Below, in pieces: positions 5,967-61,283 of a DNA stretch of 64,000 bases. Source of the DNA: an uncultured Gammaproteobacteria bacterium (lineage in GTDB: Bacteria > Patescibacteriota > Patescibacteriia > CAYZDG01); assembly GCA_964536515.1 (NCBI GenBank), contig CAZHXI010000003.1, positions 9,112 through 73,111 on the forward strand, in the 5' to 3' direction. A program made the translations under genes and the position numbers. Each line of letters starts with the position of its first letter. Positions within the stretch are counted from its first letter, which is position 1. The notes beneath the pieces are model-generated. The model was not told where the DNA came from. It ran no database searches and worked only from the letters and a program-made list of their open reading frames with translations.

Positions 5967-6994
5967 AGCGCCGCTTCCAATGCACGGATTGAAGCATCCG
6001 CGCTCCGCTGCCACGTGAACTGGCTAGCCCACGCCAGGCCAGAAGCTGACATAGAGGCGCGGCGAGGTGCATCTGTGAGTAGCCCAGCAATTGCTGCTGC
6101 GAGAGCGGCGACGTCTCCGGCAGGAACGAGAATCCCGCTACGGCCGTCATCCACCGCCTCCGGAATGCCACCGGTAGCGCTCGCGATAACCGGGACGCCG
6201 TGGGCAGTAGCTTCCACGCACACCATGCCGAAGCCCTCCACGTCGGCGCCCTCAGACCTAGCTGGCAGAACGAAGGCCCAGGCTCGGCTGTAGGCATCGG
6301 CTAGCTGGCCATCGTCCACATTCCCGAGCAGCTGAACCTTGTCTGGCTGCGAGCTGGCAGCAGCCGCAGCCTGCAGCTTGCTCCGCTCCGGCCCCCCGCC
6401 AATGATCTGGAGCCTTGCGTCCGGTACATCCTCCCAGATCTGCTCTATGGCTTGGATGAGGAGGTCGAAGCCCTTGCGGCGAACCAGACGACCCACGGCT
6501 AGAACTATCGGATGGGTAGACTCTACCCTAGTCGCTGCCGGTAGCTCCGCTGGGGCTGGGTACACCACGGTGATAGCCTCAGCGGGAATGCCGTAGCTGC
6601 GATGAATTGCCTCTAGGGTAAAGCGGCTGTTCGCCGTTATTCCAGCTGCGCCACGGAGGATCCTGGTTGCTAGCCAACGCTTCCAGACGTTCCGCAGCGG
6701 CAGCAGCACGTCCATGCCGTGCGTAGACACCACGTAGGGCTTGCCGCCCAGTAGACGGAGGATCCAAGCCACGGTCCCGGCTGGTAGCACCTGGCCAACC
6801 CAAACCACGTCGCACCCACGGCTCGCCGCACGCACGGTGGCGAGCCAAGGCAGCCACCTCGGCCAGATGCGACCGGGCTTGGGAACCAGCACCTCTACGC
6901 TGCCGGCGGGCATGTGGGCAACCAGGCTGGAGTAGTAGCGCGCAACCCCGCCGCGGCTGGGCAGGTAGTCGGTAGTTACCAGCAGCGCTTTCAT
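5963..6994 (-). CDS. Glycosyltransferase family 1 (GT4, 343 aa)
   Basis: GFGMVCVEATAHGVPVIASATGGIPE GT4 signature. ATG confirmed at 6992-6994, ATGA-coupled to the wzx-like stop. Confidence 0.85.
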   Translation of the reverse strand: MKALLVTTDYLPSRGGVARYYSSLVAHMPAGSVEVLVPKPGRIWPRWLPWLATVRAASRGCDVVWVGQVLPAGTVAWILRLLGGKPYVVSTHGMDVLLPLRNVWKRWLATRILRGAAGITANSRFTLEAIHRSYGIPAEAITVVYPAPAELPAATRVESTHPIVLAVGRLVRRKGFDLLIQAIEQIWEDVPDARLQIIGGGPERSKLQAAAAASSQPDKVQLLGNVDDGQLADAYSRAWAFVLPARSEGADVEGFGMVCVEATAHGVPVIASATGGIPEAVDDGRSGILVPAGDVAALAAAIAGLLTDAPRRASMSASGLAWASQFTWQRSADASIRALEAAL

Positions 6995-8433: not shown

Positions 8434-8482
8434 AAGGCCAGTGTAGCAGCCCACGGCTGGGCTCACGACTGGGCCTACCCGA

Positions 8483-8875
8483 CTAGCGCTTCTGCCACTG
8501 CGGGGCTCGACGGGCACGCTTGAGGCCGTACTTCTTGCGCTCCTTCACGCGGGGGTCACGGGTGAGCAGGTGGCTGGCGCGCATGACCGGCTTGGTGCCG
8601 ACGTCCTGGGCTACCAGCGCCCTGGCAATGCCCAGGCGGATCGCCTCAGCCTGCCCGCGCATTCCGCCGCCGCGCACGATGGCCGTAACGTCGAGGTCTT
8701 CACGTCCGGCAGCCGCCAGCGGCTCGCGCACCTGCGACTGGTACTCGAAGTAGGTGAAGAACGACTCCATGGGCTTACCGTTGACGGTAATGCTGCCCTT
8801 GCCGGGCATGATGCGGACCTGGGCCGAGGCCTCCTTGCGGCGGCCGACCGCGCTGATGTGGCGAGCTGCGGGCAT
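8483..8875 (-). CDS. rpsI: 30S ribosomal protein S9
   Basis: Clear S9 sequence ending ...KKYGLKRARRAPQWQKR. Confidence 0.95.
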   Translation of the reverse strand: MPAARHISAVGRRKEASAQVRIMPGKGSITVNGKPMESFFTYFEYQSQVREPLAAAGREDLDVTAIVRGGGMRGQAEAIRLGIARALVAQDVGTKPVMRASHLLTRDPRVKERKKYGLKRARRAPQWQKR

Positions 8876-8880
8876 AGTTG

Positions 8881-9270
8881 CTACTTGGTAATGGTGAGGC
8901 GACGCATCTGCACGGCGCGCTGGTGGTTGCGGGGCAGCATGCGAGAGACGGCGAGGCGGATAGCTCGGGCGGGGTCCTTAGCCAGCACCTCGGCGGCAGA
9001 CTCGAAGCGTGCTCCGCCCGGGTGGCCGGTGTAGGTGCGGTACTGCTTCAGCCTAAGGGCGGTGGGGTTGAACGTAGCCTGGCTGGCGTTCGTAACGAGA
9101 ACCTTTACGCCGGTCTTCTGGTTGGGCGTGAACGTCGCCAGGTGCTTGCCGCGTAGGTAGGTGGCGATCTGCGTTGCCAGCCGACCTACGGGCTTGCCCG
9201 CGGCGTCGATGGTCACGGCGGCGGGCGCGTGCGGCTTGTACGGCTTGGTGGAACGGGTGAGCGTGGTCAT
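8881..9270 (-). CDS. rplM: 50S ribosomal protein L13 (start MTTLTR at 9270 with upstream AGGAAG; track ORF to 9291)
   Basis: L13 signature ...AAGKPVGRLATQIATYLRGKH... Confidence 0.9.
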   Translation of the reverse strand: MTTLTRSTKPYKPHAPAAVTIDAAGKPVGRLATQIATYLRGKHLATFTPNQKTGVKVLVTNASQATFNPTALRLKQYRTYTGHPGGARFESAAEVLAKDPARAIRLAVSRMLPRNHQRAVQMRRLTITK

Positions 9271-9274
9271 ATGT

Positions 9275-9643
9275 CTACTTTGCTTCCTCATCGCCGACGA
9301 GCTGCAGCACCGCCATGGGGGCGCGGTCGCCGGTGCGCTGGCCGAGCTTAATTATTCGGGTATAGCCACCGGGGCGGGCGGCGAACCGCTTGCCCAGCAC
9401 ATCCAGAGCCTTGGCTGCCCCCTTCTCGGTTGGCAGGGCGGCGATCAGGCGGCGGCGGGCGGTGAGGTCACCCTTCTTGGCGGTCGTAATCAGGCGCTCG
9501 ACGACCGGGCGCAGCGCGCGAGCCTTGGCCAGCGTGGTGGTAACCTGCTCGTAGAGCAGCACCTGCTCCGCGGCCACCTTCAGCAGGGCCTTCCGCGGGC
9601 CCGCCTTGCGGCTGAGGGTAGTCTTACGGACTCGGTGGCGCAT
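9275..9643 (-). CDS. rplQ: 50S ribosomal protein L17
   Basis: MRHRVRKTTLSRKAGPRKALL... typical L17. Confidence 0.95.
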   Translation of the reverse strand: MRHRVRKTTLSRKAGPRKALLKVAAEQVLLYEQVTTTLAKARALRPVVERLITTAKKGDLTARRRLIAALPTEKGAAKALDVLGKRFAARPGGYTRIIKLGQRTGDRAPMAVLQLVGDEEAK

Positions 9644-9651
9644 ACGTATCG

Positions 9652-10419
9652 CTACTCCTTGGCGGCCTTAGCCTTTGCCTTCTTGGCGGGCTTAGCCGGC
9701 TCGTCCGCCGCTGCCGAAGCTGCCTGCTCCAGCGCCTCGCTGCTGCCGATGAAGTTGAAGTGCTCCAGCAGAATCTGGTTGGCGGCTGCGACGGCAGCTG
9801 CCGGGGCAATGGTGCCGTCGGTCTCTACGCTCAGAGTTACCTTCTCGTAGTTGGTGAACTGCTCCACGCGGACGTTCTCTACCTTCATGCCGACGGTTAC
9901 GACGGGCGAGAACAGGGCGTCGATGGCGAGCGTGCCGATCTCCAGCCGCTCCTTCTCGCGCACCTCGACCGGCAGGTAGCCGCGGCCGCGCTGCACCGTT
10001 ACCTCCATGGACAGGGTCGCCTTGGCGTCGGTCAGCGTGCAGATGACGTGGTCGGGGTTGGCAATGGTTACCTGGGCGTTCGCGGCGAAGTCGCCCGCGG
10101 TGACGACCGTTGCACCCTTCGCCTTCAGGGTCAGGGTTACCGGCTCATCGCTGAAGCAAGCCAGGCGAACCTTCTTCAGGTTCAGGATGATGTCGATGCT
10201 GTCCTCCTTGACGAAGGGGATGCTGGAGAACTCGTGGGATACGCCGTCGAACTTTACCGCGGTAATGGCAGCGCCGGGCAGGGACGACAGCATGACGCGA
10301 CGGAGCGCGTTGCCGAGCGTGGTGCCGTAGCCGGGGTAGCAGGGCTCGATGGTAACCGTGGCCTGCTTGGGGCCCAGCTCCTCAACGGCTAGCGTCTGGG
10401 GGAGCGGAATGGTGCTCAT
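9652..10419 (-). CDS. rpoA: DNA-directed RNA polymerase alpha subunit, N-terminal domain only (255 aa; no alpha-CTD; Ala/Lys-rich tail)
   Basis: RpoA NTD motifs (LGNALRRVMLSSLPGAAIT...). The protein ends ...AAADEPAKPAKKAKAKAAKE with no helix-hairpin-helix CTD. Confidence 0.9.
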   Translation of the reverse strand: MSTIPLPQTLAVEELGPKQATVTIEPCYPGYGTTLGNALRRVMLSSLPGAAITAVKFDGVSHEFSSIPFVKEDSIDIILNLKKVRLACFSDEPVTLTLKAKGATVVTAGDFAANAQVTIANPDHVICTLTDAKATLSMEVTVQRGRGYLPVEVREKERLEIGTLAIDALFSPVVTVGMKVENVRVEQFTNYEKVTLSVETDGTIAPAAAVAAANQILLEHFNFIGSSEALEQAASAAADEPAKPAKKAKAKAAKE

Positions 10420-27697: not shown

Positions 27698-28819
27698 TTA
27701 CTCTACCAGACGGTAGCGTCCGCCGGGAAGCTTGGCGAACCGCTTGCGGTTCATCAGCGCCAGGGCAACGGTGGAAGACTTCACCACCCGCTGCTTCAGC
27801 ACGCGCTCCACAATCTCGTCCTTGGTAAGGGGCTCGGCTGCATCGCGGAGCACCCGCTCGATTACGTCGGCGACCACGCCGGGCTGGTAGCCCCACTCGC
27901 GCAGTGCGTAGGTGCCGCGGCCGACCAGCACGTACTTGGAGTCGAGGATCAGCTCGTTGTGCACCGTGGCCGGGTAGGCGGTCTTGTGGTCGAAGCCCGT
28001 CTCGTTGATAGCCTTGGCGATGTCGGTGAAGTGCATGGGCTTGCCGTACTTCTTGAGCACCAGGTAGATCTTGTCGCTCATGCGGCGCGGGTTGACCGTC
28101 TTCCAGTCCGCCAGGCCCCACTCGCCGTACGGGTTCACCCGCAGCTTGTTGCTGGCGCGCATGTACGACTCGACCGCGTCATCGGTGAGGGAGTCGCTGT
28201 TCTCGCTGTAGTGCGGGTGGGCCTTAACGGCAGCCAGGACGTCATCCATAGGCTTCGGCTCGCCCAGCTTGTCGATGACGGTGTGGAGCGACAGCAGCGT
28301 CTTCTCGATGAACTCCCACGGGGTGGCTGCGAGGCGCCAGGAGGGGTGCAGCTCGTCGCGATACTTCAGCCGCTCGACCTCGTCCACCAGCTTATCGATG
28401 AGCATGAGGGCGGCTGCGCGCTGCTCGCGGACCGAAGACTGCTGGCCGAGCACGCGGTCCAGGCCCATGTCCTCGGGAATGAGGCCGCCGTGCTGCTCGA
28501 GCACGCGGCGAGACACGGCGCCCAGCGGGGCGACCAGGCCCTCGCGCTCGTCAGCCTGGCGCAGCTTGCGCAGAGCCGAAGCCTCGATCTGGCGGACACG
28601 CTCACGGGTAATCTTGTACTGCTGGCCAATGGCCTCCAGCGTCTGCGGCTCCGGGTTCTTGCCCAAGCCGAAGCGTAGGTGAATCACCTCACGCTCGCGT
28701 GCGCTCAGCCCCTGGCCAAGCTTGATGATGATCTCGTACGGATTCAGGTCCTTAGCTAGCGACTCGTGCTGGCTAGAGAGCACCCGATCGAGGATGGAAT
28801 TTTCCTTGCTGTCGGCCAT
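27698..28819 (-). CDS. Sigma-70 region-4-like domain fused to three HARE-HTH-like repeats (about 373 aa from ATG 28819; track ORF TTG at 28867)
   Basis: N-terminal [51 protein letters not shown] matches the sigma70 region 4 consensus. Three repeats starting (K/E)P(M/L) and ending ...[11 protein letters not shown] / ...[10 protein letters not shown] / ...GGRYRLVE resemble the HARE-HTH of RNAP delta subunit. Confidence 0.7.
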
Positions 28820-28927
28820 ATATTTATTGCTATTGCGCACAGTACCACAGTATGTTTTAAGCGTCAAGCAAGCCTGTGCACAGGCAGCCCCGGCGGTAGC
28901 CGGGGCTAGCAGAACCGCTGCAGTCCC

Positions 28928-29830: not shown

Positions 29831-31486
29831 CTAGCGTGGGGTAACAATCCACCGCGGCGGCTGCCACTTGCCGCTGAATACGACTCGCATGAGCGTACGG
29901 GTGAAGGTGATAGCTGTGAACATGCTGACGACGATGCCAATGGCCAGGGTAATGGCGAAGCCCTTTACGATGCCGGTGCCGAACCAGGCCAGAATGACGC
30001 AGGTGATGAGCGAGCTGACGTTGGAGTCACGAATGGCCAGCCAGGCGCGGCTGAAGCTGTCCTCTACCGCCAGGGCCATGGGCTTGCCGGCGCGCAGCTC
30101 CTCCCGTAGGCGCTCGAAGATGAGCACGTTGGCGTCCACCGCCATGCCGATTGAGAGGATGAACCCGGCGATGCCGGCCAGGGTCAACGTTACCGGCCAG
30201 ACCTCGAACACAGCCATCGAAACTACGGCGTAGGCTAGCAGCGCCACCACGGCCATGAGGCCGGGCAGGCGGTAGTACAGCAGCATGAACAGGGCTACGG
30301 CGAGCAGGCCGAGCAAGCCGGCGATTAGGCTCTGCTGCACCGAGACCTTGCCCAGCGTGGGGCCGACGGTCTGCTGGCTGATGAGGTTGATGGGGACCGG
30401 CAGCGCACCGGCGTTCAGCCGCTGAGCCAGCAGCTTGGCATCCTTAAGGCTGAAGTCTCCGGTAATAATGGCACGGCCCTCGGTAATAGCCGTCTGCACC
30501 GTGGGCACGCTAATGGCCTGCCCGTCTAGGAAGATGGCAATAGGCTTGCCGATGTTCGCCTGGGTCAGCTCGGCGAACAGCTGCCTGCCCTGGTCGTCGA
30601 AGGTCAGGGCGACGTGCGGCTGGCCGGTGTTCTGGTCGAACTCCACCTGCGAGCGCTTCAGGTTCTTGCCGGTCAGCTGGGTGTTCCTCCACTCGCCCTC
30701 GCCCGCTGCGGCAGCCTTGAACAGGATGTGGGACGATCGAACCTCGCGGCTGAAGGCATCGCCGCGTACGTCGGTAACCTTGATGATGTGGTAGCCGAAC
30801 TGGCTGCGCACCAGCTGCGGCAGCACGGCGCCGGGCTTCAGGCCGGGCGCGAGAATAGCATCCTTGTACTCGGGCACGAAGCTGGTTTCGGAGCTTGCCC
30901 AGCCGACGTCGCCGCCCTGCACCTTGCTGCCCTCGTCCTCGCTGAACTCGGCAGCGAGCTTGGCGAAGTCCTCGCCCTTGGCTGCGCGGCCCAGCACCAG
31001 CAGCGCCCTATCCTGCACCGCTGAGTCTGCTGGGGCGGCCGATGCGGTGCCGGTAGCGACCTGCTCCTTGAACTCCAGCAGCGGCGTCTCGCCGATGAGC
31101 TTAATTGCCTGGCCTACGTCGCTTATGCCCGCCAGCTCTGCAATTACACGGTAGCTGTCGCCGTAGCGGCTGGTCTGGATGACCGGCTCGCTGACGCCGA
31201 AGGCGTTCACCCGGCGCTCGATGACGTCGCGGACGCCGTCCATGGCCTCGGTGCGCTCGGAGCTATCCAGCTGGCTGACGTCTGCCTCGTACACCAGGTG
31301 GGTTCCCCCCTGTAGGTCTAGCCCCAGGTGGGAGGTGAAGCTGTTCAGCTTCTTGGCGAACGGCAGGCTCTCGGGCACCCGCACGGGCAGGCTAATGGCC
31401 GAGGCAATAGCCAATACAGCAACCAGTGCCGCGAATGAGTACCACACCCGGTGGCGGGTAACGGTGCTGGTTGGTCGGTTCGCCAT
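29831..31486 (-). CDS. secD: Protein translocase subunit SecD carrying an inserted PpiC/parvulin-type PPIase-like domain in the periplasmic head (551 aa)
   Basis: SecD motifs (LGLDLQGGTHLVYEAD..., IAIFLDGQAISVPTVQTAITEGRAIITG, C-terminal 6 TM). The insert ...EDFAKLAAEFSEDEGSKVQGGDVGWASSETSFVPEYKDAIL...QFGYHIIKVTD matches the parvulin rotamase consensus. Confidence 0.85.
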   Translation of the reverse strand: MANRPTSTVTRHRVWYSFAALVAVLAIASAISLPVRVPESLPFAKKLNSFTSHLGLDLQGGTHLVYEADVSQLDSSERTEAMDGVRDVIERRVNAFGVSEPVIQTSRYGDSYRVIAELAGISDVGQAIKLIGETPLLEFKEQVATGTASAAPADSAVQDRALLVLGRAAKGEDFAKLAAEFSEDEGSKVQGGDVGWASSETSFVPEYKDAILAPGLKPGAVLPQLVRSQFGYHIIKVTDVRGDAFSREVRSSHILFKAAAAGEGEWRNTQLTGKNLKRSQVEFDQNTGQPHVALTFDDQGRQLFAELTQANIGKPIAIFLDGQAISVPTVQTAITEGRAIITGDFSLKDAKLLAQRLNAGALPVPINLISQQTVGPTLGKVSVQQSLIAGLLGLLAVALFMLLYYRLPGLMAVVALLAYAVVSMAVFEVWPVTLTLAGIAGFILSIGMAVDANVLIFERLREELRAGKPMALAVEDSFSRAWLAIRDSNVSSLITCVILAWFGTGIVKGFAITLAIGIVVSMFTAITFTRTLMRVVFSGKWQPPRWIVTPR

Positions 31487-36436: not shown

Positions 36437-36727
36437 ATGTCTGAAGGCCAAGGCCAAATATTCATCCTCCACTATACGGGAGGAAATGGGGACGCGAAGA
36501 ACGACTACCACTTCATCGGCTCGAGCCGAGAAGCAATCACCGCCGACGCTCTGCAGTTCGTCAAGAAGCCGTCGAAGTTCATCGGCGAGATTACGCTGGA
36601 GAGGGCGCGGGAGCTGAACCTGGAGTTCCTGGAATCTGGGCTCGAATCCGTTCGCGCCGGCAACAAGAGCTACCTGCTCGGCCTGCCCAACGGCAAGCAG
36701 GTCCGCGGCCAACTAGCCCAAGCATAG
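36437..36727 (+). CDS. Hypothetical small protein (96 aa) with strong Shine-Dalgarno (GAAGGAG)
   Basis: RBS 8 nt upstream of the ATG. Lower-GC codon usage; divergent from secA. Confidence 0.6.
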   Translation: MSEGQGQIFILHYTGGNGDAKNDYHFIGSSREAITADALQFVKKPSKFIGEITLERARELNLEFLESGLESVRAGNKSYLLGLPNGKQVRGQLAQA

Positions 36728-37231: not shown

Positions 37232-37795
37232 ATGGTAGTCGCGGCCGTAAGTGCGTTCGATATGCGCATTTCGGTTTACGCCCCAACCCTGCTGCAGACC
37301 TGCGCCGCCAGCCTTAGGACAATTGGCGCCGAGCCAGTGTCGGCGGTAGCCGAACGGACCGCTAGCCTGCCGACCGGCGTGTGCGGAGTAATTGTTGAAG
37401 CTAGCCATTCCGATGCTGCGGCTGGCTTCGTGCTGGCCGTAGCGGTGCAGAAGCAGCTGCCCACGCTGTGCCTGGTACCCAAGGGCGTGCCGTTGCCGGA
37501 GCCGCTGGCCAGCGTCCGAGCCGACCCAATGTGCAACCGTAACCTACGGCTCGTCCGCTATGAACCCGGACAGCTACGCCGCATAGTCGAGCAGTTCGCC
37601 GCCACATGCACCGGGCGTGGCCCCGAGCAGCCGACAATCAAATTTACCCTGCGGCTGACCCCCAGCCAGGAGAGGTACCTGGCGTGGCGATCCTCCAATG
37701 ACAGGTTAGAGAAAGCGCAGGTGCTGAGGCAGGTCATCGAGAAGCTGGTCGCCGACGACCCGAGCTACATAGGCTTCCTTGACAAAAATGCATAA
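37232..37795 (+). CDS. Hypothetical protein (187 aa), possible C-terminal ribbon-helix-helix-like segment
   Basis: Long ORF divergent from hpf; no Shine-Dalgarno. C-terminal KFTLRLTPSQERYLAW is RHH-like (weak). Confidence 0.35.
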   Translation: MVVAAVSAFDMRISVYAPTLLQTCAASLRTIGAEPVSAVAERTASLPTGVCGVIVEASHSDAAAGFVLAVAVQKQLPTLCLVPKGVPLPEPLASVRADPMCNRNLRLVRYEPGQLRRIVEQFAATCTGRGPEQPTIKFTLRLTPSQERYLAWRSSNDRLEKAQVLRQVIEKLVADDPSYIGFLDKNA

Positions 37796-37932
37796 TTAGT
37801 GGTAATAGTAGTTCATTAGCGACCATTGACAAAAGCCTTAATTTACTTGCTTTCTCCCCTACTCCCCACGGTCGGGGCGAGCGGAAGTAAATTAAGGGCA
37901 AAAGTCACACGAAAAAATAGAAGGAGACAGAG

Positions 37933-39039
37933 ATGTCTAGTAATGGAAATGGGAACGGAAACGGCTCGAGCTGCCTGGTACCCAGCGTGCTGGTGCGCCC
38001 GAGCGAGGGCACGAGCAAGACGATCGTGAAGCTGGGAAGCATCCCGGCCGACGCAGGATCACTGAACGTCCGCATCGAAGAGGAACTGAAGGGCATTCGC
38101 CTGGTTCCAGTTGAAATCGGTTCGGACGCGGCCGATTGGCCGTTCGTGGTACGCGGTCCGGTCGTTGACGCTTCGGCAGATCGCCCGCACCAGGTATTCA
38201 TCTGCATCGAGATCGATGCAGCATACGAGTATGTAGACCTCTACATTACGGTCGTGGGTGACGACTCCCAGGCCAATGGAGAGCTGTTCCGCATCCCGAT
38301 AGTCGTCGTAGACGAGAGCAACGATGCGGCTAAGGCACAGCAGCCTATGACGCAGCTGCAGCTCGGAGCCATGGCGACCACGGCGATGGCGAACTGGCGC
38401 CTGCTGCAGCAACGGCAGGCGGCGCAAGCTGCAGAAGCGGCAGACCACGTAATTCAGACCACCGACGAGCCGATAGTCGAAGCGCTCGTTCTCAGCGAGA
38501 CGGCGCGCGAACCGGGATCTACCGACCCGGTGGCCGGTGGAGCAACAACGGCAGGCGGCACCCAGCCGACCGACGCGCCGACTACGATTGCAACGCAGCC
38601 CACGGCTGCAGCGACTCCGACAGCCGTCCAAACGGCAGCGTCAAGCGATGGTCGGACGACCGTACACATTGTGGCGAGCGGTACAGAGCAGGTCCTCGTA
38701 GGACCGATCAGCATCACGCCCGTCGTATCTGGCGCAGCTAGCTGTGCGCCCCAAGGCCCGACCGCAGCCGCAACAACGGGAGATCCGGATGCCCCAGTGG
38801 GGGCTTCACAGCTGCGGTGGGTAACCCTCGCCATGGCGGGCACGCTATTCCTAATTAGCTTCTTCGCCGCTGCTGAGAAGACGCCCGAGTGGATTCGCAT
38901 GGTTCCGAGCCTGCTCGGAGCTGGCATGTTCGGATTCCTCACGCTATGGCTGGGCGGCGCAAGACGCAACAACATCTGGCTGGCACTGGCCGCACTGTTT
39001 GCGGTTGCGACGTTAATCAGCGCAGGCTTGGGAGGCTAG
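37933..39039 (+). CDS. Hypothetical membrane-anchored protein (368 aa): N-terminal (NG)4 repeat, beta-rich domain, Thr/Ala/Pro-rich linker, two C-terminal TM helices
   Basis: AGGAGA RBS 6 nt upstream of the ATG; first gene of a three-gene plus-strand operon. Confidence 0.7.
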   Translation: MSSNGNGNGNGSSCLVPSVLVRPSEGTSKTIVKLGSIPADAGSLNVRIEEELKGIRLVPVEIGSDAADWPFVVRGPVVDASADRPHQVFICIEIDAAYEYVDLYITVVGDDSQANGELFRIPIVVVDESNDAAKAQQPMTQLQLGAMATTAMANWRLLQQRQAAQAAEAADHVIQTTDEPIVEALVLSETAREPGSTDPVAGGATTAGGTQPTDAPTTIATQPTAAATPTAVQTAASSDGRTTVHIVASGTEQVLVGPISITPVVSGAASCAPQGPTAAATTGDPDAPVGASQLRWVTLAMAGTLFLISFFAAAEKTPEWIRMVPSLLGAGMFGFLTLWLGGARRNNIWLALAALFAVATLISAGLGG

Positions 39040-39040
39040 C

Positions 39041-39625
39041 ATGGCAGACGCAAGAACCGGCTCGGTATTCACCGACGCCATTACCGACCTGCTGCTGCCT
39101 GCCCTCGGCATCCGTCTCTTCATGAAACGGAGCGAGGGTGGGCACAGCGATCCGACCGCGAGCAGCCAAGACGAATTCGCCCTACTGCACGCGCTCGAGA
39201 CGCTGGAGGGCGAGGACGCGAAGATGAAGGAGTTCATCCTCGGGTACCTAAGGTACCTCAAGTCTGAGAACAAGTCTCGCATAATTCCCCGACTCCGCGA
39301 GACCATAGCCCGGGCCGGGGGAAAAGATGGAGCGAAAGCTGAAGAGGTACAGAAGCTACTGGTCTCCATCTTTAAGGAAGAATTCGCGAAACTGGCTGAT
39401 GCCGCTGGGAACCAAAACACCACGGCAGCATACAGAAAGATCAGCGATGATTTGGACATAATTCTTACGCAGAGGCTGATGGCAACGCTGAGGGATCGGT
39501 GGGGTCAGTTTGCCGACTTCTTTGCCGACCTCGAGCAGCAGCACGTTGAGGCTGCAGATGATCTGGATGAGTTCTTCAGGAGCAGACGCGAGCGGAGACG
39601 TAACAGAAACCAAGGAAGGAGCTGA
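39041..39625 (+). CDS. Hypothetical acidic cytoplasmic protein (194 aa)
   Basis: GGGAGG RBS; start 1 nt after the upstream stop, so translationally coupled. Confidence 0.7.
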   Translation: MADARTGSVFTDAITDLLLPALGIRLFMKRSEGGHSDPTASSQDEFALLHALETLEGEDAKMKEFILGYLRYLKSENKSRIIPRLRETIARAGGKDGAKAEEVQKLLVSIFKEEFAKLADAAGNQNTTAAYRKISDDLDIILTQRLMATLRDRWGQFADFFADLEQQHVEAADDLDEFFRSRRERRRNRNQGRS

Positions 39626-39627
39626 AA

Positions 39628-41481
39628 GTGGAAATCAATCTGAAGGAGGGGAAGTTCAAGGTAGACCCCATAGCCGGTGAGGGCACCATCAAGAGCTTCC
39701 TACGGGCGCTGTTCTGGCTCTCACTCGCAGCCCTGCTCGGAGCGCTGTTCATGCCTAAGGCAGCAGCGAGCTGGCTGAAAAAGGCCGTGGACTACGCAGA
39801 CGAAGCCTGGGATGCCTGGGAGCCCAAGCTGAAGGGCTGGGGCCGGTGGCTGGTGAACCACGTAAGGACGTGGGGCCAGTTCCTGCTGGACGGATCGCTG
39901 AGACTCGTCAGCGCGACGCTGATCATCTCGGCATTCCTACTCCTGTTCTACACCGCTGGATTGGCGTACGCAGGCCCATTCGCAGTGGCTATGGCCGTAC
40001 CGATCGGCATCCTGGTACTGGTAGCTACATCGGTGGTCAACCTGCTGCCCCGACGCCTGTTCCCCAATAAGGGCAAGCTGAAGGATGTCGTTGGCATCAT
40101 AGGCATGTGGCCCATTGCCATAGCCGTGCTCATTGCCACGCTCGACATCCGTAAGCTGGGTGAGGGCGCGGTCGCCGTACTTTTACTGGTGGTACTCTTC
40201 TACCTCATCAGGGGTGGAGACATGCAGAGGGCACGGAAAGTTGCCCTGGCCGTACTGTGGTTCGGAATTGTGTTCCACTCGGTGAAGGTTGGCTTGCCGG
40301 CACTCGAAACCGGAGTCGCCGGTGGATGGGCCAAGGAGATGGCCAGCCACGTTTCGTTCTGGGATACAGAGCGAGACAAGGCTGCCGACATTCTGCGGGA
40401 ACGTGAGCTGGTATACAGCCAACGAACCTTCGGAGTCGCTACCGACACCATTGACGTTGTCCTGCTGCCGACCTACGCCAACGGCAACGTAACCTTGGGT
40501 GAAATAGCTACCAGCATTCTGCCGCAGGATGTTCTGGAAATTCTGACGGACGAGAAGGCGGCAGCCTGGGGCGCAGAGTTCAACGATCCCCTGCTCGCGG
40601 CGCTCGGCGATACAGCCAAGCACGCCCGCGCGGCGGCCAAACGTGGGCTGGGATTCGTGGACGTCTCCCTGGTTGCCTTCAAGGACCCGGGCAAGCGTAG
40701 GGTGTTCGAGCTGGAGCATGGCTCGGTAGCATTCTACGTACCCTGGGGCTCCGTCAGCGCGGACGCCAAGCTGACGGCGCAGAACGGCCAGGCAGCCACG
40801 CCGCGGGGGGAAGAGGTACCGAGAGACTTCTCCCTCACCGGGACGGTCAACGGCCGACGGGTCGGCGGGTCGGTATCGATTCGGGATACCGTCGGCACGG
40901 TAGACGAAGACGGCTGGATCACTGTCGTCTACAACGCCACTAAGAATCCGGTTATCCGCATCCCGCTCAAGACGCAGCCCGGAGACATCGTGGAGTTCGA
41001 ATACCTAGACGGCACGGTGGCCCACAGCCGCCTGCCGGACGGGTCGCAGGACCCAAAGTACCATGATAGGAACGGCTACCACTACGCCCACGACGTTGGG
41101 CCTAGCGGCTACGAGCCAGACCAAACAATGGGCCAGAGCTGGCAGCTGGCCCAGACGCAGCTGCTGAACCAGGGCGCGCCGTACATGTCGCTGCAGGTGG
41201 GCACATCGCCCAGCAACGTAGACCTACGCACGGTCTTCGCCTACGGCGAGAGCTACGCCACAGTAGAGGTAGCCAAGCCTGGAAGCTACCTGTACCTGGC
41301 GTTCAACGATGCATTCTACGACAGGAACTGGAGCGGCTCGGCAGCCACGTACCTCCAGTCCCAGTGCAACAGACGCATCGGATGGATAAAGTTCAGGGTC
41401 AGGATTGCGCCAGCGTACGACGCTGACGCTGACTCTGACGAAGAGTACGAGGAGCTGGGCTACGCCAGCAGAAGAAGATGA
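39628..41481 (+). CDS. Hypothetical polytopic membrane protein with a large, about 400-aa C-terminal extracytoplasmic domain (617 aa; GTG start with AAGGAG RBS)
   Basis: Five or six N-terminal TM helices; the C-terminal domain is rich in Gly/Tyr/Asn (beta-rich). Confidence 0.7.
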   Translation: MEINLKEGKFKVDPIAGEGTIKSFLRALFWLSLAALLGALFMPKAAASWLKKAVDYADEAWDAWEPKLKGWGRWLVNHVRTWGQFLLDGSLRLVSATLIISAFLLLFYTAGLAYAGPFAVAMAVPIGILVLVATSVVNLLPRRLFPNKGKLKDVVGIIGMWPIAIAVLIATLDIRKLGEGAVAVLLLVVLFYLIRGGDMQRARKVALAVLWFGIVFHSVKVGLPALETGVAGGWAKEMASHVSFWDTERDKAADILRERELVYSQRTFGVATDTIDVVLLPTYANGNVTLGEIATSILPQDVLEILTDEKAAAWGAEFNDPLLAALGDTAKHARAAAKRGLGFVDVSLVAFKDPGKRRVFELEHGSVAFYVPWGSVSADAKLTAQNGQAATPRGEEVPRDFSLTGTVNGRRVGGSVSIRDTVGTVDEDGWITVVYNATKNPVIRIPLKTQPGDIVEFEYLDGTVAHSRLPDGSQDPKYHDRNGYHYAHDVGPSGYEPDQTMGQSWQLAQTQLLNQGAPYMSLQVGTSPSNVDLRTVFAYGESYATVEVAKPGSYLYLAFNDAFYDRNWSGSAATYLQSQCNRRIGWIKFRVRIAPAYDADADSDEEYEELGYASRRR

Positions 41482-41504
41482 GACGCACATTCAACCGAAC
41501 GAGA

Positions 41505-41536
41505 ACGCACCCGGAACCCGGGTGCGTTTTTCTATT
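41505..41536 (+). terminator. Rho-independent terminator GCACCCGG-aa-CCGGGTGC + TTTTTCTATT
   Basis: Immediately after the stop of the operon ending at 41481. Confidence 0.8.
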
Positions 41537-41547
41537 CCGGTGTAAGC

Positions 41548-42096
41548 CTAAACGTCCTCAGCCTCGTACGCGGGGCGCCGGCGGCGGCGCAGCTTCTTGC
41601 CCACTATGGTCATGGCCACCAGGGGGATAACGTGCCACGCCAGCTGGGCCTCACCGGTTGCGAACGCACGCTTGGTATTGGCCGACAGCTGCTCAATTGC
41701 CTGCGGGGGCAGGTAGCTTATGACCGCGGCGATCATCAGCCCAACCAGCGTGAACGACAGGATGATGCTGTGGTACCACGCGCCGTCCTCTCCCCTATTG
41801 CCCACCAGGTTGCGCATTAGCCCGGCGTGCGAGAACAGGAAGAACACCAGCACGAAGACGGCCAGGAAGCCAACGGTCTGCACCATGGGGTGCTTGGCAA
41901 TGCCGTCGCCCAGCAGCTTCTCGGCTACCGGCGCGTACTTTTCCACCGCCAGGGCCATGTAGACGCTGACGATGGTAACCACCGTGCGCTGCCGACCCAG
42001 TGACAAGCCGAATATCACCGAGGCCACCACCAGGAACAGCAGGATGATGAAGTCCCAGCTCGGGGCACCCCAGTTGATTGCGTCTAGTGCGGGCAT
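41548..42096 (-). CDS. CvpA-like/hypothetical small membrane protein (182 aa)
   Basis: Four TM helices and a basic C-terminal tail; ATG confirmed at 42094-42096. Confidence 0.55.
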   Translation of the reverse strand: MPALDAINWGAPSWDFIILLFLVVASVIFGLSLGRQRTVVTIVSVYMALAVEKYAPVAEKLLGDGIAKHPMVQTVGFLAVFVLVFFLFSHAGLMRNLVGNRGEDGAWYHSIILSFTLVGLMIAAVISYLPPQAIEQLSANTKRAFATGEAQLAWHVIPLVAMTIVGKKLRRRRRPAYEAEDV

Positions 42097-42183: not shown

Positions 42184-42212
42184 TTGACAGCTTAGCGCTA
42201 ATATGCTATTAT
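42184..42212 (+). promoter_or_regulatory. Canonical sigma70 promoter TTGACA-N17-TATTAT upstream of the 42262 gene
   Basis: Hexamers and spacing counted from the sequence. Confidence 0.6.
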
Positions 42213-42261
42213 ACATATATTACTTGAATAGTTTCACGTTTCATTGAAAAAGGAGTCCGTC

Positions 42262-42621
42262 ATGGACGTCATATATCTGGTATTCGGAGGCCCCAACTGG
42301 GCGACAATGCTCGGCCTCATGGCCGCATCTACCCTACTTATGGCTTCGTACATCTTCTCGTTGTCTCGGGCCTTTCGGCACCCGAAAGTTGCAGCTATCT
42401 CGCTCTTGGCTTGGGTGCCCCTGTGGTTCCTCTGCGTCGGACGAATCGACTCAAACTACGATGCAGCTGTAGCTATGGGCGCGCCGTACGACGGCGAGTA
42501 CCTCATCAGCGCTATCGTAGTTGCTCTGCTGCTGAACATTGTGGCCGCAGCAATGGTCCAGCCGCTGTTCCATCGAGTCCATGATTCGTTTCGGAACCAG
42601 CAAGCTCACCCTGTTGCCTAA
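42262..42621 (+). CDS. Hypothetical small membrane protein (119 aa from ATG 42262, AAGGAG RBS; track ORF TTG at 42244)
   Basis: RBS plus ATG; three TM helices. Confidence 0.65.
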   Translation: MDVIYLVFGGPNWATMLGLMAASTLLMASYIFSLSRAFRHPKVAAISLLAWVPLWFLCVGRIDSNYDAAVAMGAPYDGEYLISAIVVALLLNIVAAAMVQPLFHRVHDSFRNQQAHPVA

Positions 42622-42635
42622 CGCACCAAACAACT

Positions 42636-42669
42636 AGCCGCCCCCAAATCGGGGCGGCTTCTGTTATCT
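42636..42669 (+). terminator. Rho-independent terminator AGCCGCCCCC-aaat-CGGGGCGGCT + TCTGTTATCT
   Basis: Follows the stop at 42621. Motif shared with the terminators at 986..1017 and 43109..43138. Confidence 0.75.
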
Positions 42670-43138: not shown

Positions 43139-43385
43139 TCTGGACACACTATTCGGGTCGCCTAGAACCTACTCATTGCGAGGGAGGCCACCGAAGCCTT
43201 GCGGAGGTGGCCGACCGCGGCAATCCCCTACTCAAAGCTCCAGGGCTTGATGAGGAGATTGCTTCGCTCCGCTCGCAATGAATAGAAAGTAGAGACTGTC
43301 ATGCCGGGCTCGACCCGGCATCTATTCAGCTCGAACCAATAAGACCCCGGATCGAGTCCGGGGTGACAGGCAGTCGTCTATTCAT

Positions 43386-43928
43386 CTATTCGTTCACTGT
43401 AAGAATTGCAAAATGCTTTTGCTTAAGCCGTTGCATTACTGTGGGATCAGTACTAGCCAGTAGCTTCCTGCAAGCAGACTCGAAATCGCTGAAAAAATCC
43501 TCAGCGATAAAGACCAGCTGAGTTTTCCCCTCTACCTCTACAATATCTAAATGAGAGTGCTCACCTGCGCCTGACTTCTGGGTTAGCATCAATCCACCGA
43601 CGCCCTCCAAATATACAGGTCGATGCAGATGGACCAATTTACCTCTGAATAGAACCTTCAAATCTAAAGCTTTGTCTTTTCCTACATACGAACGGTACTT
43701 TTGAGGGAATAGTTCATGCAAAGCTAATTCAAAATGCTCAAACGCCTTCCTGTCGTTAACCCAATCATGCTTAGGATCTAAACAAGATCCCAGGAACTCA
43801 ATTGCTAGCGTTAAGAGAATGAAGCTTGTGAAGTGGTGATCGTGTGCAATGGCACGATACTCATTCAACAGAACGCTTTCTATATATTGGGCTGTTGAGA
43901 TGTCAGAGCGACTCTCGATCTCCGCCAT
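43386..43928 (-). CDS. Low-GC (about 45%) hypothetical protein (180 aa) immediately downstream of dnaJ; possible HEPN-like R-x4-H motif (FRGKLVHLH)
   Basis: Composition contrasts sharply with the roughly 65% GC flanks. Its ATG sits 2 nt after the dnaJ stop codon. Confidence 0.6.
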   Translation of the reverse strand: MAEIESRSDISTAQYIESVLLNEYRAIAHDHHFTSFILLTLAIEFLGSCLDPKHDWVNDRKAFEHFELALHELFPQKYRSYVGKDKALDLKVLFRGKLVHLHRPVYLEGVGGLMLTQKSGAGEHSHLDIVEVEGKTQLVFIAEDFFSDFESACRKLLASTDPTVMQRLKQKHFAILTVNE

Positions 43929-45027: not shown

Positions 45028-45126
45028 ACGTCATTGCGAGGAGCGAGCCGCAGGCGAGAGACGTGGCAATCCGCTACTAATCAGCAACACGATTGCCACG
45101 CTCCCTACGGTCGCTCGCAATGACGT
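45028..45126. repeat. Nested inverted repeat in the dnaK-dnaJ spacer (outer 13-bp ACGTCATTGCGAG/CTCGCAATGACGT; inner 10-bp CGTGGCAATC/GATTGCCACG)
   Basis: Read directly. Confidence 0.6.
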
Positions 45127-48424: not shown

Positions 48425-49108
48425 TTAACGGTGCGATGTAACGAAGGAAACGATGCCGCGGCTCAGGCCGTAGTCCATACGCTGCGGGCCGATGATGCCG
48501 AACAGGGCGCCGTCGGAGGTGCGGCCGTAGACCGTGCCGAAGGCGCTGCCGAACGGGCAGGCGCTGCCGATGCGCACGTCAACGTCGCCCACGTCCTTCC
48601 ACATCCGCTCCAGCGTAGAGCCGAAGTGGTCCAGCACCTCGGCCAGCGAGCAGACCATGCTGACCTCGGCGAACTCCGGTCGGCTGAAGACGGACGACAG
48701 GCCGGTGTAGTAGTAGCTGCTGGGCTGGAACGCCACGAACACCGCCGCGTCCGCGGCCTGGCTGCCGACCCTAGCCATTGCCTTCAGGCTCTCCTCGGTC
48801 TTGCCCACGTTGCGCTCCAGCTGCTGCTGAACGGACCGGGGCAGCCGGGGCTCGTCCGGCAGCTGGCCCACGTAGAAGCGGTAGCCCAGCTCGGTGGGTA
48901 CGCGGCCGGCAGACGTGTGGGGCTGGCGCAGGTACCCAGCCTCCTCTAGGGCAGCCAGGTCGTTGCGGATGGTGGCGGAGCTGCAGTCCAAGCCCAAATC
49001 CACCAGCTGGTGGCTGGAGACTGGCTCGGCCTGGGCAATGTACTGCCTCACCAGGGCGGCCAGGAGCTGCTGCTGCCGGGGCGTAATGGCGTTTACCATA
49101 GTTAGCAA
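48425..49108 (-). CDS. hrcA: Heat-inducible transcription repressor HrcA, short form (about 224-227 aa; likely start MVNAITPRQ)
   Basis: N-terminal winged HTH (...[17 protein letters not shown]...SSHQL...) and its position upstream of grpE-dnaK. Confidence 0.8.
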
Positions 49109-49128
49109 TCTATATACTAGACTGCTAA
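49101..49128. promoter_or_regulatory. CIRCE-like operator TTAGCAATC-N9-GACTGCTAA at the hrcA start
   Basis: Two mismatches to the TTAGCACTC-N9-GAGTGCTAA consensus. Confidence 0.65.
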
Positions 49129-49145: not shown

Positions 49146-50264
49146 CTACCTGAACCCCAGCCGGCTGCGGAGGGCGACGCTCTGGGCTATGCCCAGGGCG
49201 ATGAGCAGGGTTAGCAGCGAGCTGCCTCCGGCGCTCACCAGGGGCAGGGTTACGCCGGTGAGCGGCAGCAGCCCCAGAGCGCCGCCGAGGTTGATGATCG
49301 CCTGGCACCCAATCCAGCCCGCGAGGCCCAGGCACACAAGGGTACCGAAGTCGTCTTCGCTGCTGCGGGCAATGATGATGAGCCTAGCGAGCAGCAGGCC
49401 TAGCAGCGCCAGGATTGCGAGGGCGCCCACCAGCCCCAGCTCCTCGGCCAAGCCGGAGAAAATGAAGTCGGTATGCTGCTCGGGGAGGAAGTTGAGCTGG
49501 CTCTGCGAGCCCAGGCCAATCCCCCGCCCCAGCACCTGGCCCGAGCCGACGGCCACAATGGACTGGCGGACGTTGTACCCGCTGCCCAGCGGGTCGGCGC
49601 CTGGGTTGAGGAAGTTGAGCACGCGGTCGTGCTGGTAGGGCGAGAGCAGCGCGAACCAAGCGAACACAGCTAGCGCAACACCCCCGCCGATGAGCAGTAG
49701 CCACTGCTTCCAGCTGGCACGGTAGAAGAACAGCAGCACCAGCCAGATAGCCACGAGCACGAGCGCCGAGCCAAGGTCGGGCTGCAGCAGCACCAGGCCG
49801 GCCAGGCCGGCTAGCCATAGGCCGCTGGCCACGAACGGCTTCCACCGACCGGCCTCGCCGATGCGAGCGCTGAAGTAGCGCGAGAGGATGAGCAGCAGCG
49901 CCAGCTTTGCGAACTCCACCGGCTGGAGGGTAGCGCCGAACAGGTTGAGCCATGCCTGGCTGCCGCGAATGGTGCGGCCCGCGACCAGCACCACCACCAG
50001 CAGCAGCGCCACGCCTATGTACATCAGCTTGCTGTACGAGCGGAAGGCTCGGTAGTCGGCCAAGCTAATGGCCAGCATCAAGGCTACGCCAACAACCGCC
50101 ACGGCTAGCTGCTTGCGCAGCAGGCCAGCGTTGGCGGGGTCTGCCAGCGTTGCGCTGTACAGGGCCACGAGCCCGAAGCAGACCAGCAGCGCGGCCGCAC
50201 CCAGCATGAACCAGTCCAGGCTGGCGAACCGCGACCCGAGCGACGAGCGTGCCAACGACCTCAT
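49146..50264 (-). CDS. SEDS-family peptidoglycan glycosyltransferase FtsW/RodA
   Basis: Ten-TM SEDS layout; conserved ...[16 protein letters not shown]...[11 protein letters not shown]... Confidence 0.85.
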
Positions 50265-60059: not shown

Positions 60060-61283
60060 ATGGAAAAACTGCAGCGACGGCTGCGTCTGTTCATAGTTCT
60101 CGCCCTGCTCACCGGAGCGGCGGCGGCTCTGTTCGTTGGCACCGCCAGCGCCCAGACGAGCACCGCCGAGACCGTAACCATTGGGGATATGGGGCTAACG
60201 GCTACCCCGCCGGCGGGTGGCTTCGCCCGGTGGTGGGACAGCTTCACGGACGGCGTAAGGCTGCAGTTTACCTTCAATGACCAGAGGAAAGCCGAGCTGC
60301 AGCTGCAGCGGGCCGCCAAGCTCCTCGCCCGACTAGAGCAGGCCGGGGGCGACGCCCAGGCAGAGCAGCTGCTGGCCAAGTACCGGGCCGCGGTGAACAA
60401 GATCGAAGCGGAAGCCGAGCTGAGCGACACGTTCCTGGGTAGGCTCCTGGCCCAGCAGAGCTTCATTACCCAAATCGAGGGCTCGGGCCGCTTCAGCTTG
60501 GGCGACCAGCTAGCCGTTACGCGCAACCAGAACTGGGAGAAGCTGAACGCAACCTTCGGCGATGCCGGAGCGCTTAGCCAGCGCCTAGCCAACCTACCTA
60601 CCGCCTCGCCCGAGGCAATTGCCAGGCGTGCGGCCATGCTGGAGGAGTGGCGGCAGCGCCTCTCGCCCGAGCAGCAGGCTAAGGCCGAGGCTGCCATAGG
60701 TGCACTGGTAGAGAAGCTCCGCAGCCTATCCCCCGCCCAGGCAGCGGCCATTGCCGAACGTCTGCACGCCTTCACCGCCAGCCAAGAAGCCCAGGCGTAC
60801 ATCGGGGCGCTCCTGGAGAAGGTGCAGCCTAGCCTGGAGGGGCTGGCTAAGCAGCTGGCGCAGCCCCGGCAGCCCAACCAAGACCCGACGCCGGCCAATG
60901 CCGCTGCCGGCATCCTGGGCAACGTTGCGGTGCCCCCCATGTCAGCCGGGGAGATTGCCGCCCGTCGCGCCGAGCTTGCCGAGGCGACCACCAAGGATGA
61001 GCTGCTGGCCCTACGCCAGCGCTGGTACGGCAACCCGGTGCTCTACCGGCAGCTATCGCAGTACCAGCGCACGCTGCTGGACCAGCTCAACGCCAAGCTG
61101 GTCAAAGCCCTGGGCAGGGGCTCGCAGCCGGTAACCCCCGCTGCTCCGACGGATCCGGACGCCGGCGTAACTCCCCTCCCCACCCAGCAGCTGACCCCCG
61201 AGCAGCAGGCAATGGGCCAGGCCTTCATCCAGATGCAGGGCATAGACTCCAGCGACCTACCGCCGCCCACGGTCTCTTACTAG
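60060..61283 (+). CDS. Secreted hypothetical alpha-helical protein (407 aa)
   Basis: Signal peptide; Ala/Gln/Leu-rich helical repeats. An extended -10-like TGGTATACT lies about 40 nt upstream. Confidence 0.65.
   Translation: MEKLQRRLRLFIVLALLTGAAAALFVGTASAQTSTAETVTIGDMGLTATPPAGGFARWWDSFTDGVRLQFTFNDQRKAELQLQRAAKLLARLEQAGGDAQAEQLLAKYRAAVNKIEAEAELSDTFLGRLLAQQSFITQIEGSGRFSLGDQLAVTRNQNWEKLNATFGDAGALSQRLANLPTASPEAIARRAAMLEEWRQRLSPEQQAKAEAAIGALVEKLRSLSPAQAAAIAERLHAFTASQEAQAYIGALLEKVQPSLEGLAKQLAQPRQPNQDPTPANAAAGILGNVAVPPMSAGEIAARRAELAEATTKDELLALRQRWYGNPVLYRQLSQYQRTLLDQLNAKLVKALGRGSQPVTPAAPTDPDAGVTPLPTQQLTPEQQAMGQAFIQMQGIDSSDLPPPTVSY

Follow-up and report, generated by a model that had tools for sequence, protein, structure and literature searches.

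A three-gene operon fixed between housekeeping genes, with a structured leader RNA and an apparently exchanged cassette, in an uncultured bacterium

What holds three genes of no recognised family at one place among housekeeping genes, when their own sequences diverge so widely between close strains? The genes in question, here called g1, g2 and g3, lie at positions 37933-41481 of a 64,000-nucleotide stretch of contig CAZHXI010000003.1 (assembly GCA_964536515.1), which we call the window; all positions are those of the window unless another locus is named. An initial annotation of this DNA had placed them in a lower-GC island at 36.3-43.9 kb and suggested an acquired module. We describe an operon that is resident at its position, headed by a structured leader RNA, and of which one part, from g1 through the membrane domain of g3, appears to be exchanged between genomes as a unit. 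Combined with a proposed role of its products as an envelope recognition complex, this makes a composite reading that we put forward tentatively. The functional part of that reading, taken by itself, we consider doubtful.

The operon, its position and its hypervariable cassette

All three genes are on the forward strand, as given by the window's list of open reading frames (ORFs): g1 at 37933-39039 (368 aa), g2 at 39041-39625 (194 aa) and g3 at 39628-41481 (617 aa, with a GTG start). One nucleotide separates the g1 stop from the g2 start, and two separate the g2 stop from the g3 start. Each gene has its own Shine–Dalgarno (SD) sequence (AAGGAGA for g1, GGGAGG for g2 and AAGGAAGGAG for g3), and the tightly coupled arrangement first described, with its ribosome-binding sites and 1-2 nt spacing, proved exact in coordinates, lengths and gaps. 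So did the strong terminator proposed after the third gene: at ~41503-41536 (+), a GC-rich stem is followed by UUUUUCUAUU, with a folding dG of -27.6 kcal/mol and a z of -4.1 against shuffles, and serves both g3 and the convergent gene cvpA as an intrinsic terminator. The three genes form one translationally coupled transcription unit that runs from a sigma-70-like promoter to this strong intrinsic terminator. Neither their products nor that of the upstream gene p187 match a family in Pfam, NCBIfam, PADLOC or PHROGs, and their sequence profiles match no PDB sequence. The earlier statement that all three belong to no recognised family is borne out: g1, g2 and g3 are without a known family, and no described system is like the operon they form.

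Related loci were found by exact and profile look-ups. They comprise L002 (GCA_964589475.1), L003 (JGI 3300063078), L004/L008 (GCA_964477165.1) and the groundwater fragments L005-L007, together with the more distant L011, L013, L014 and L018. In every recovered contig that is long enough, the gene order is secA, one or more small ORFs, hpf, p187 where present, g1-g2-g3, a convergent cvpA, one or more small transmembrane (TM) ORFs, and dnaJ-dnaK. The hpf gene encodes a ribosome hibernation factor (PF02482, E 1.5e-9), and the product of cvpA (41548-42096, reverse strand) passes the gathering score for CvpA, the colicin V production protein (PF02674, E 5.8e-8, 33.3 bits against a cutoff of 29.3); g1, g2 and g3 are themselves unrelated to CvpA. 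The hpf and cvpA products are 93-96% identical to those of the closest relative. Across the recovered loci cvpA is always convergent with, and adjacent to, a g3-like gene; it is 70-98% identical and evolves 5-10 times more slowly than g1, g2 and g3. Because all long-enough relatives share this gene order, the 36.3-43.9 kb block is not an insertion. It keeps its position, it contains the housekeeping genes hpf and cvpA, and conserved synteny in relatives, which the initial annotation had itself named as evidence against an island, holds for the block as a whole. What survives of the acquired-module idea is that part of the operon appears to have moved between genomes.

Against a background of 24 genes of the window, in which the GC content at third codon positions (GC3) is 0.826 +/- 0.051, g1 (0.686, z -2.8) and g2 (0.677, z -2.95) are mildly atypical, as the initial annotation had noticed, whereas g3 (0.761, z -1.3) falls in the normal range, among the other envelope genes, and hpf, cvpA and the small gene orf112, all inside the claimed block, have normal GC3. 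The strongest outliers are outside the operon: orf180 at 43386-43928 (0.448, z -7.5) and orf125 (z -3.3). Relative to L002, the only window-specific segments are at 42.1-42.7 kb and 43.1-43.9 kb. Among the proteins scanned from 36.4-43.9 kb, none matches a Pfam integrase or transposase, and there is no tRNA near the operon and no pair of flanking direct repeats. Throughout a narrow clade the operon keeps a single chromosomal site, with hpf/secA on one side and cvpA/dnaJ on the other.

Within this fixed frame, divergence is distributed very unevenly. Between the window and L002, the flanking genes differ lightly: SecA is 97% identical in protein sequence with a synonymous divergence (dS) of 0.44, HPF 96% (dS 0.69), DnaK 94% (0.35), CvpA 93% (0.47) and DnaJ 88% (0.47). 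Identity falls to 81% for p187 (dS 0.96), 72% for g3 (0.83), 51% for g2, where dS is saturated, and 32% for g1 (1.7), so that g1 evolves very fast relative to the SecA of the same, closest genome. The figure for g3 is itself a composite of 1.42 over residues 1-228, the TM part, and 0.60 over the ectodomain. In a 100-nt sliding comparison of DNA identity, the flanks stand at 77-98% and the leader (37800-37900) at 88%; from 37900 to ~40300 identity is only 40-65%, and past ~40300, at the end of the g3 TM domain, it is back to 77-88%. This profile delimits a hypervariable cassette at 37933-40311 (+) that consists of g1, g2 and the TM domain of g3.

The same profile recurs in an independent pair, L003 and L004, whose CvpA proteins are 98% identical. 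Here the leader is 98% identical and the 5' part of g1 70-78%; from the 3' part of g1 through g2 to the g3 TM domain, identity is 38-48%, with a sharp return to 70-93% at the same TM/ectodomain junction. The transitions are abrupt: flanks of 90-98% identity give way, within 100 nt, to stretches of 40-48%. The 5' junction of the cassette lies at or close to the leader, and the 3' junction coincides exactly with the boundary between the TM domain and the ectodomain of g3. Identity matrices made separately for the two halves of g3 disagree as well. The ectodomains follow the genome tree, the window pairing with P0002 (82%) and P0003 with P0004 (79%), and the two pairs lying ~50% apart. The TM domain of P0003, by comparison, groups with those of the window and P0002 (64-67%) and is just 36% identical to that of P0004, which groups with P0005 (56%). 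Taken together, these comparisons indicate that the segment from g1 to the g3 TM domain is an allelic cassette, replaced by recombination among old allele classes. Hypermutation of the type driven by diversity-generating retroelements was considered and is excluded by the length of the divergent stretch, 2.4 kb and far too long, and by the absence of any template/variable repeat pair involving the operon.

Polymorphic cassettes between conserved flanks are familiar from the pneumococcal cps locus, the domains of type I hsdS genes, the tips of contact-dependent inhibition (CDI) and Rhs toxin–immunity loci, and the Proteus IdsD/IdsE proteins, in which TM regions vary. The present operon shares with them sharp drops of identity at fixed junctions, the joint exchange of neighbouring and presumably interacting genes, and allele classes that would be older than the genomes that carry them. 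It differs in having no homology to any of them and no toxin, immunity, glycosyltransferase or methylase domain. It differs also in the placing of the variation, the TM/cytoplasmic half being the variable one here and the exposed, lectin-like domain the conserved arm.

Promoter, leader hairpin and upstream gene

The DNA just upstream of g1—125 nt—is the best-conserved of the whole locus, and the leader is near-identical in four of the loci. Ahead of the leader lies what reads as a sigma-70-like promoter at 37779-37808 (+), composed of TTGACA, a spacer, TGG and then TAATAG (TATATA in relatives), the -35 hexamer overlapping the final codons of p187. Both TTGACAAAA and TGGTA are invariant across five loci. 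In a simple consensus scan this promoter stays below threshold, and the position of the transcription start upstream of g1 is a prediction from the sequence.

Within the leader, a 62-nt stem-loop at 37836-37897 (+) is formed by CCUUAAUUUACUU...AAGUAAAUUAAGG around an inner CCCC/GGGG helix. It occurs once per locus, always upstream of g1, and is kept through compensatory changes even in the distant L011, the g3 of which is only 25% identical. In the alignment, 97% of the cells are paired, and 5 of the 23 pairs are changed on both sides; none of 500 shuffles reached this pairing score, and for slid controls the paired fraction is 39-59%. The covariation sample consists of five sequences, four of them nearly identical. 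Where G-U pairs occur, they fit the forward strand only. Minimum-free-energy folds leave the g1 SD sequence unpaired, and the bases of the loop and bulges are so strongly conserved as to hint at specific recognition. The element has the marks of a structured, cis-acting leader RNA: a conserved fold with compensatory changes on the transcribed strand. Nothing in Rfam 15 resembles it; the window contains no match at the gathering score, and the segment 37600-38050 gave matches to microRNAs and long non-coding RNAs that were at chance level (E 0.28 or worse). Scans of metagenome and viral contig collections with a 22-mer of the leader were likewise without a match.

Other readings of the leader were tried. 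Read as protein, it gives MTKALIYLLSPLL..., which resembles a signal peptide, and in L003 and L004 this frame is also that of g1; a signal peptide or an upstream ORF was therefore considered. The frame is not conserved, however, being out of register with g1 in the window, L002 and L011, and in L011 it is interrupted by a stop while the hairpin is kept by compensation; a coding role is therefore rejected. An attenuator or terminator was rejected too, as no U-tract follows the hairpin on the forward strand. An outer helix, UUGAC/GUCA, that might extend the hairpin was dropped because it is not conserved in L003 and L004. Judged by analogy, the hairpin most likely stabilises the mRNA or offers a binding site to a regulator. 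Stabilising 5' stem-loops are found in the leaders of highly expressed envelope genes such as ompA and the S-layer gene slpA. The present leader resembles these in being a long, stable hairpin near the 5' end, after a strong-looking promoter, with the SD sequence unpaired; it differs in having neither a sequence nor an Rfam relationship to them, and in the high conservation of its loop and bulge bases.

The upstream gene p187 (37232-37795, +) encodes 187 aa, with M11 as the likely true start, and the protein is 41% identical to its counterpart in the distant L011. Its C-terminus carries a ribbon-helix-helix (RHH)-like pattern (TIKFTLRLTPS...), and an hhalign comparison with five RHH sequences gave the expected strand-helix-helix register, at just E 0.015 and a probability of 3%. 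There is no match to a Pfam RHH family or to the PDB. The protein is possibly a regulator, to judge from this pattern. In L003 no such gene precedes g1, so that its membership in the unit is uncertain.

The proteins and what they might do

The g1 protein begins with a beta-rich N-terminal region that carries an (NG)4 repeat, continues with a Thr/Pro/Ala-rich, low-complexity linker at residues 176-300 (69% T/P/A/G/S/Q), and ends in two strongly hydrophobic segments and one weaker one. The layout first proposed for it holds in its repeat and its linker; the clean C-terminal TM hairpin gives way to 2-3 TM segments. Its N-terminus, MSSNGNGNGNGSS, has no hydrophobic core and so no sign of a signal peptide, and an in-frame stop 12 nt upstream of the ATG closes the reading frame. 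The distribution of charges predicts that this N-terminus is cytoplasmic. A single homologue gives a weak hint of a TIG/Ig-like domain (E 0.066). The g2 protein has no hydrophobic segment and is predicted to be soluble and helical. It had been described as a 194-aa acidic soluble protein. Length and solubility stand, and 'acidic' is loosely right: the pI is 6.0, with 33 D+E against 31 K+R, near-neutral overall, and the C-terminal tail is very basic (RRERRRNRN).

Two of the more distant loci carry other genes at these positions. In L018 the slot of g2 (3002-3649, reverse strand) holds a gene for a membrane protein that is no homologue of g2 and has a sub-threshold match to DUF2207_C (E 2.3e-5); the middle gene of the cassette is thus replaceable. 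In L013 the gene at the g1 position (4890-5663, reverse strand) keeps the C-terminal TM anchor, and its N-terminus resembles a fragment of a PolB-type 3'-5' exonuclease (VYDTEVYP...SFNGIKFDVPVM; PF10108, at only E 0.2). If real, this case would mean that the soluble domain at the g1 position is itself swappable, and cytoplasmic; alternatively, it is an assembly artefact at a contig end.

The g3 protein divides into an N-terminal TM domain (39628-40311, +), which is the 3' part of the cassette, and an ectodomain of ~390 aa (40312-41481, +). The former has six hydrophobic helices at residues ~23-226, with the invariant motifs GMWPIAIA and GGWAKE; the latter consists of a stalk helix, an alpha/beta domain and a C-terminal beta-sandwich. 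The initial annotation, which gave g3 five or six TM helices and an extracytoplasmic domain of roughly 400 aa, agrees with this layout. The positive-inside rule would turn three segments inward, namely the strongly basic loop at 139-154, a long amphipathic stretch at 43-91 and a loop at 197-204, a self-consistent pattern that would put the N-terminus and the C-terminal domain both outside; the predicted topology is therefore an external N-terminus, six TM helices and an extracytoplasmic C-terminal domain.

AlphaFold2 (AF2) models of g3 improved with the depth of the alignment, from a mean predicted local distance difference test (pLDDT) score of 42 with 4 sequences to 62.7 with 9, and in the 9-sequence model most of the beta-sandwich lies at pLDDT 70-87. 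In this predicted structure the beta-sandwich adopts a fold like that of PA-IL (LecA). At the level of the fold, and at that level only, the modelled domain is PA-IL/LecA-like, and sugar binding is putative. A Foldseek comparison of the model with PDB and BFVD returned no match with E < 0.001. In Pfam, the nine members of the g3 family match no model at E <= 0.1, neither PA-IL (PF07828) nor TrbL/VirB6, and hhalign aligned g3 with the LecA sequence over merely 12 columns, elsewhere in the protein, with a probability of 0.3%. Asn560 is invariant across the family; the adjacent Asp561, which we take to correspond to the Ca-binding Asp100 of LecA by a by-eye, unverified register, becomes E or R in distant members. 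We do not assign g3 to the LecA family. The galactophilic lectins of that family (PA-IL or LecA, PllA and EclA-N; PF07828) are small, soluble tetramers, whereas the g3 domain is the tail of a six-TM protein and contains insertions; the modelled fold is similar, and the sequence relationship is undetectable.

The g3 family is very small, with about 9 representatives among 1.8 billion. Four proteins belong to it among 5.8e9 clusters; a word-indexed search with the 9-sequence g3 profile returned the same 4 alone, and when all 1.84e9 representatives were searched exhaustively with an HMMER profile, eight matches came back, six of them credible. A profile scan of a metagenome contig collection found no g3, and a scan of a genome contig collection found one locus, already among those known. 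The CvpA subfamily beside g3 is equally narrow (seven relatives, 56-91% identity). Phage and plasmid records, searched by tblastn, and viral contigs hold no relative.

From these parts we would assemble the following picture. The products of g1, g2 and g3 may form one membrane complex, in which g3, by its six TM helices, presents a stalked ectodomain with a LecA-like and possibly carbohydrate-binding tip outside the cell. At the cytoplasmic face, g1, with its C-terminal TM segments as a tether, and the soluble g2, with its basic tail, would touch the TM domain of g3, and this proposed contact would explain why precisely these parts are exchanged jointly. Replacement of the cassette would proceed by homologous recombination, the near-invariant leader on one side and the conserved ectodomain and cvpA on the other serving as homology arms, and several old allele classes would be maintained in the population. 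The likeliest role would be envelope recognition or adhesion by an abundantly expressed complex whose target is a glycan, of the bacterium's own wall or of a partner or host cell. The half of the complex in the membrane and cytoplasm would then confer some strain-specific property, on which diversifying or frequency-dependent selection acts, and the leader hairpin would stabilise the mRNA or bind a regulator.

Several observations weigh against this picture. No homology ties g1, g2 or g3 to a function, and the complex is drawn from coupling and co-variation alone. The part that varies is the TM/cytoplasmic half rather than the exposed ectodomain, the opposite of what simple surface-antigen variation would produce and an awkward point for any idea of surface variation. 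For g1, which lacks a signal peptide, the topology comes from the positive-inside rule alone. The g3 model is of moderate confidence, its likeness to LecA is confined to the fold, with a negative hhalign result, and the aspartate next to the invariant Asn560, the putative equivalent of the LecA Ca-site residue, is not kept across the family. The leader covariation draws on a handful of sequences that are for the most part near-copies of one another, and the constant adjacency of cvpA may merely reflect conserved synteny within a narrow clade.

Other explanations account for some of the same facts. One takes up a suggestion of the initial annotation: a horizontally acquired, mobile defence (anti-phage) or toxin–immunity module, its variability the mark of an arms race, would suit the lower GC3 of g1 and g2, the extreme divergence with exchange of alleles and the strain-specific insertions nearby, and membrane-tethered, variable proteins are common in abortive-infection systems. 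It is nonetheless improbable. PADLOC-DB 2.0, searched at E <= 1, has no match for g1, g2, g3, p187 or the small neighbours (CvpA alone drew a chance-level match to 2TM-TIR, E 0.014), and PHROGs and the phage, plasmid and viral-contig collections returned nothing that would bear out a defence or immunity function. The operon, moreover, is not sporadic but stands at the same place in every related contig that covers the position, without an integrase, tRNA target or flanking repeats, and with no recognisable enzymatic effector domain. The same variability would fit a different idea, that the operon serves a major S-layer-like surface protein: g1, abundant and anchored C-terminally on a Thr/Pro stalk, with g2 and g3 aiding its export or anchoring and the hairpin stabilising its mRNA. 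Hypervariability between close strains is typical of surface-layer genes, and g1 shows it; its layout of beta-rich domains, T/P-rich linker and C-terminal membrane anchor, the TIG/Ig-like hint in one homologue, and the conserved, strong-looking promoter with a stable 5' hairpin that leaves the SD sequence free all point the same way. What makes us think it unlikely is that g1 has no signal peptide and a stop 12 nt before its ATG, that the signal-peptide-like frame of the leader is out of register in the window, L002 and L011 and stopped in L011, and that the charge distribution predicts a cytoplasmic N-terminus.

A plainer account would have these as ordinary, lineage-specific envelope proteins under relaxed constraint, diverging in situ through their low-complexity linkers and TM helices with no exchange at all. 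Orphan membrane proteins are very common in such genomes, TM segments and T/P-rich linkers tolerate many substitutions, and the GC3 of g3 is within the normal range of the window. Divergence in place, however, is hard to reconcile with synonymous sites near saturation in the cassette beside flanks with a dS of ~0.4, with a fall in DNA identity over so short a distance, and with a TM-domain tree that conflicts with those of the ectodomain and the genome; nor does a very strongly constrained leader and promoter agree with it. The near-saturated synonymous sites next to lightly diverged flanks, together with the conflicting trees, argue for replacement of the cassette and make relaxed constraint an unlikely explanation. 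A further candidate is a divergent part of the monoderm-type type IV secretion system (T4SS) of Patescibacteria, with g3 as a VirB6-like, polytopic partner of the TrwB/VirD4-like protein encoded at 24273-26042, 12 kb upstream. In Patescibacteria, the gene for the type IV coupling protein (T4CP) is usually found apart from virB4, and homologues of VirB6 have often diverged beyond detection (PMC12102498); both points, and the polytopic nature of g3, leave room for such a system. We regard it as very unlikely all the same, as no member of the g3 family matches any Pfam model, TrbL/VirB6 included, no virB4 or virB3 is nearby and the nearest T4SS-like gene is the distant VirD4-like one, the g3 family is far narrower than the distribution of T4SSs, and the locus context is one of housekeeping genes.

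The composite reading of anatomy, exchanged cassette and envelope recognition complex has a more speculative extension. The locus might be a hitherto undescribed type of polymorphic 'compatibility' locus of an episymbiotic bacterium of the candidate phyla radiation (CPR) type, in which the conserved, lectin-like ectodomain contacts the partner cell and the cassette, as the recombining module, sets a strain-specific intracellular response or identity, kept as several ancient allele classes by frequency-dependent selection; the leader RNA would control the unit and double as the upstream homology arm. We offer this as conjecture. If the evolutionary reading is true, the operon is a compact case of an interacting module—two proteins and the membrane domain of a third—that is swapped whole at a domain boundary, in a group of organisms whose cell-surface biology is almost entirely unknown. 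The locus then offers a new, very narrowly distributed protein family with a lectin-like ectodomain, a new conserved leader hairpin and a fixed recombination junction. It stands out from ordinary orphan operons, which are common in such genomes, by a cassette junction that recurs at a domain boundary and by a structured leader that hardly varies. Its practical value is limited by the tiny family, the uncultured organisms and the moderate quality of the model.

Neighbouring genes and the organism

The clade consists of uncultured bacteria, and some of the source records are groundwater metagenomes. The gene content of the window, which includes a short, 600-aa alanyl-tRNA synthetase, surface proteins with Big_9 and cadherin domains and a dnaK locus of the hrcA/CIRCE type (CIRCE, controlling inverted repeat of chaperone expression), suggests a Patescibacteria/CPR-like organism; the record of one relative bears the label 'uncultured Gammaproteobacteria'. 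Two further genes point to the Patescibacteria/CPR-like lineage by an unusual architecture: one at 27698-28867 (reverse strand) encodes a fusion of Sigma70_r4 and HARE-HTH domains, and one at 29831-31486 (reverse strand) a SecD with a peptidyl-prolyl isomerase (rotamase) domain in its periplasmic head. The VirD4-like coupling protein (589 aa) contains a treble-clef zinc finger and is encoded in a segment at 24273-27635 (reverse strand) beside a 529-aa protein with no family match; its gene, with no virB4 nearby, matches the orphan T4CP pattern of Patescibacteria (PMC12102498). At 20511-24177 (reverse strand) are genes for two paralogous surface proteins, one of 558 aa and the other of 622 aa. 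They contain Big_9, cadherin-like and CHB_HEX_C domains and share internal DNA repeats of the families D1, D4 and D17; next to them, at 19081-20391, is one for a CAP-domain protein.

Closer to the operon, the neighbourhood is variable in small ways. The small ORFs between secA and hpf form a second, minor variable spot: orf96 (36437-36727, +) is 57% identical to its counterpart in L002, and in the L002 segment concerned, 6372-7040, there is an extra 109-aa ORF. Beyond cvpA, orf125 (42244-42621, +) encodes a 125-aa TM protein behind a near-consensus promoter at 42184-42212 (TTGACA-17-TATTAT, with a TG), and a bidirectional terminator comes after it at 42636-42659; L002 lacks the entire segment 42100-42700. 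The outlier orf180 (reverse strand, 180 aa, GC 0.436) is also absent from L002, has no match in Pfam, PADLOC or PHROGs, and has the look of foreign DNA recently inserted between orf112 and dnaJ. A palindromic element of ~95 nt, resembling a miniature inverted-repeat transposable element and with the ends CATTGCGAG...CTCGCAATG, is present in two copies, at 43173-43280, adjoining the orf180 insertion, and at 45030-45126, in the dnaJ-dnaK spacer; a related copy is found in L002 at 3090-3197.

In L003, dnaK is split into two HSP70 ORFs of 329 and 309 aa (8161-10027, reverse strand), probably by a frameshift or an assembly error. Further along the window, a CIRCE-like inverted repeat at 49102-49128 (+), TTAGCAATC-N9-GACTGCTAA with 2 mismatches, lies between the ORFs 48425-49108 and 49146-50264 and suggests control of the nearby chaperone genes by HrcA. 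Finally, ARAGORN reports a tRNA-Gly(GCC) at 61056-61151 (reverse strand) that is unusually long at 96 nt; Rfam, at its gathering score, shows no tRNA in the window, and the call is either an intron-containing or otherwise atypical tRNA or a false one.

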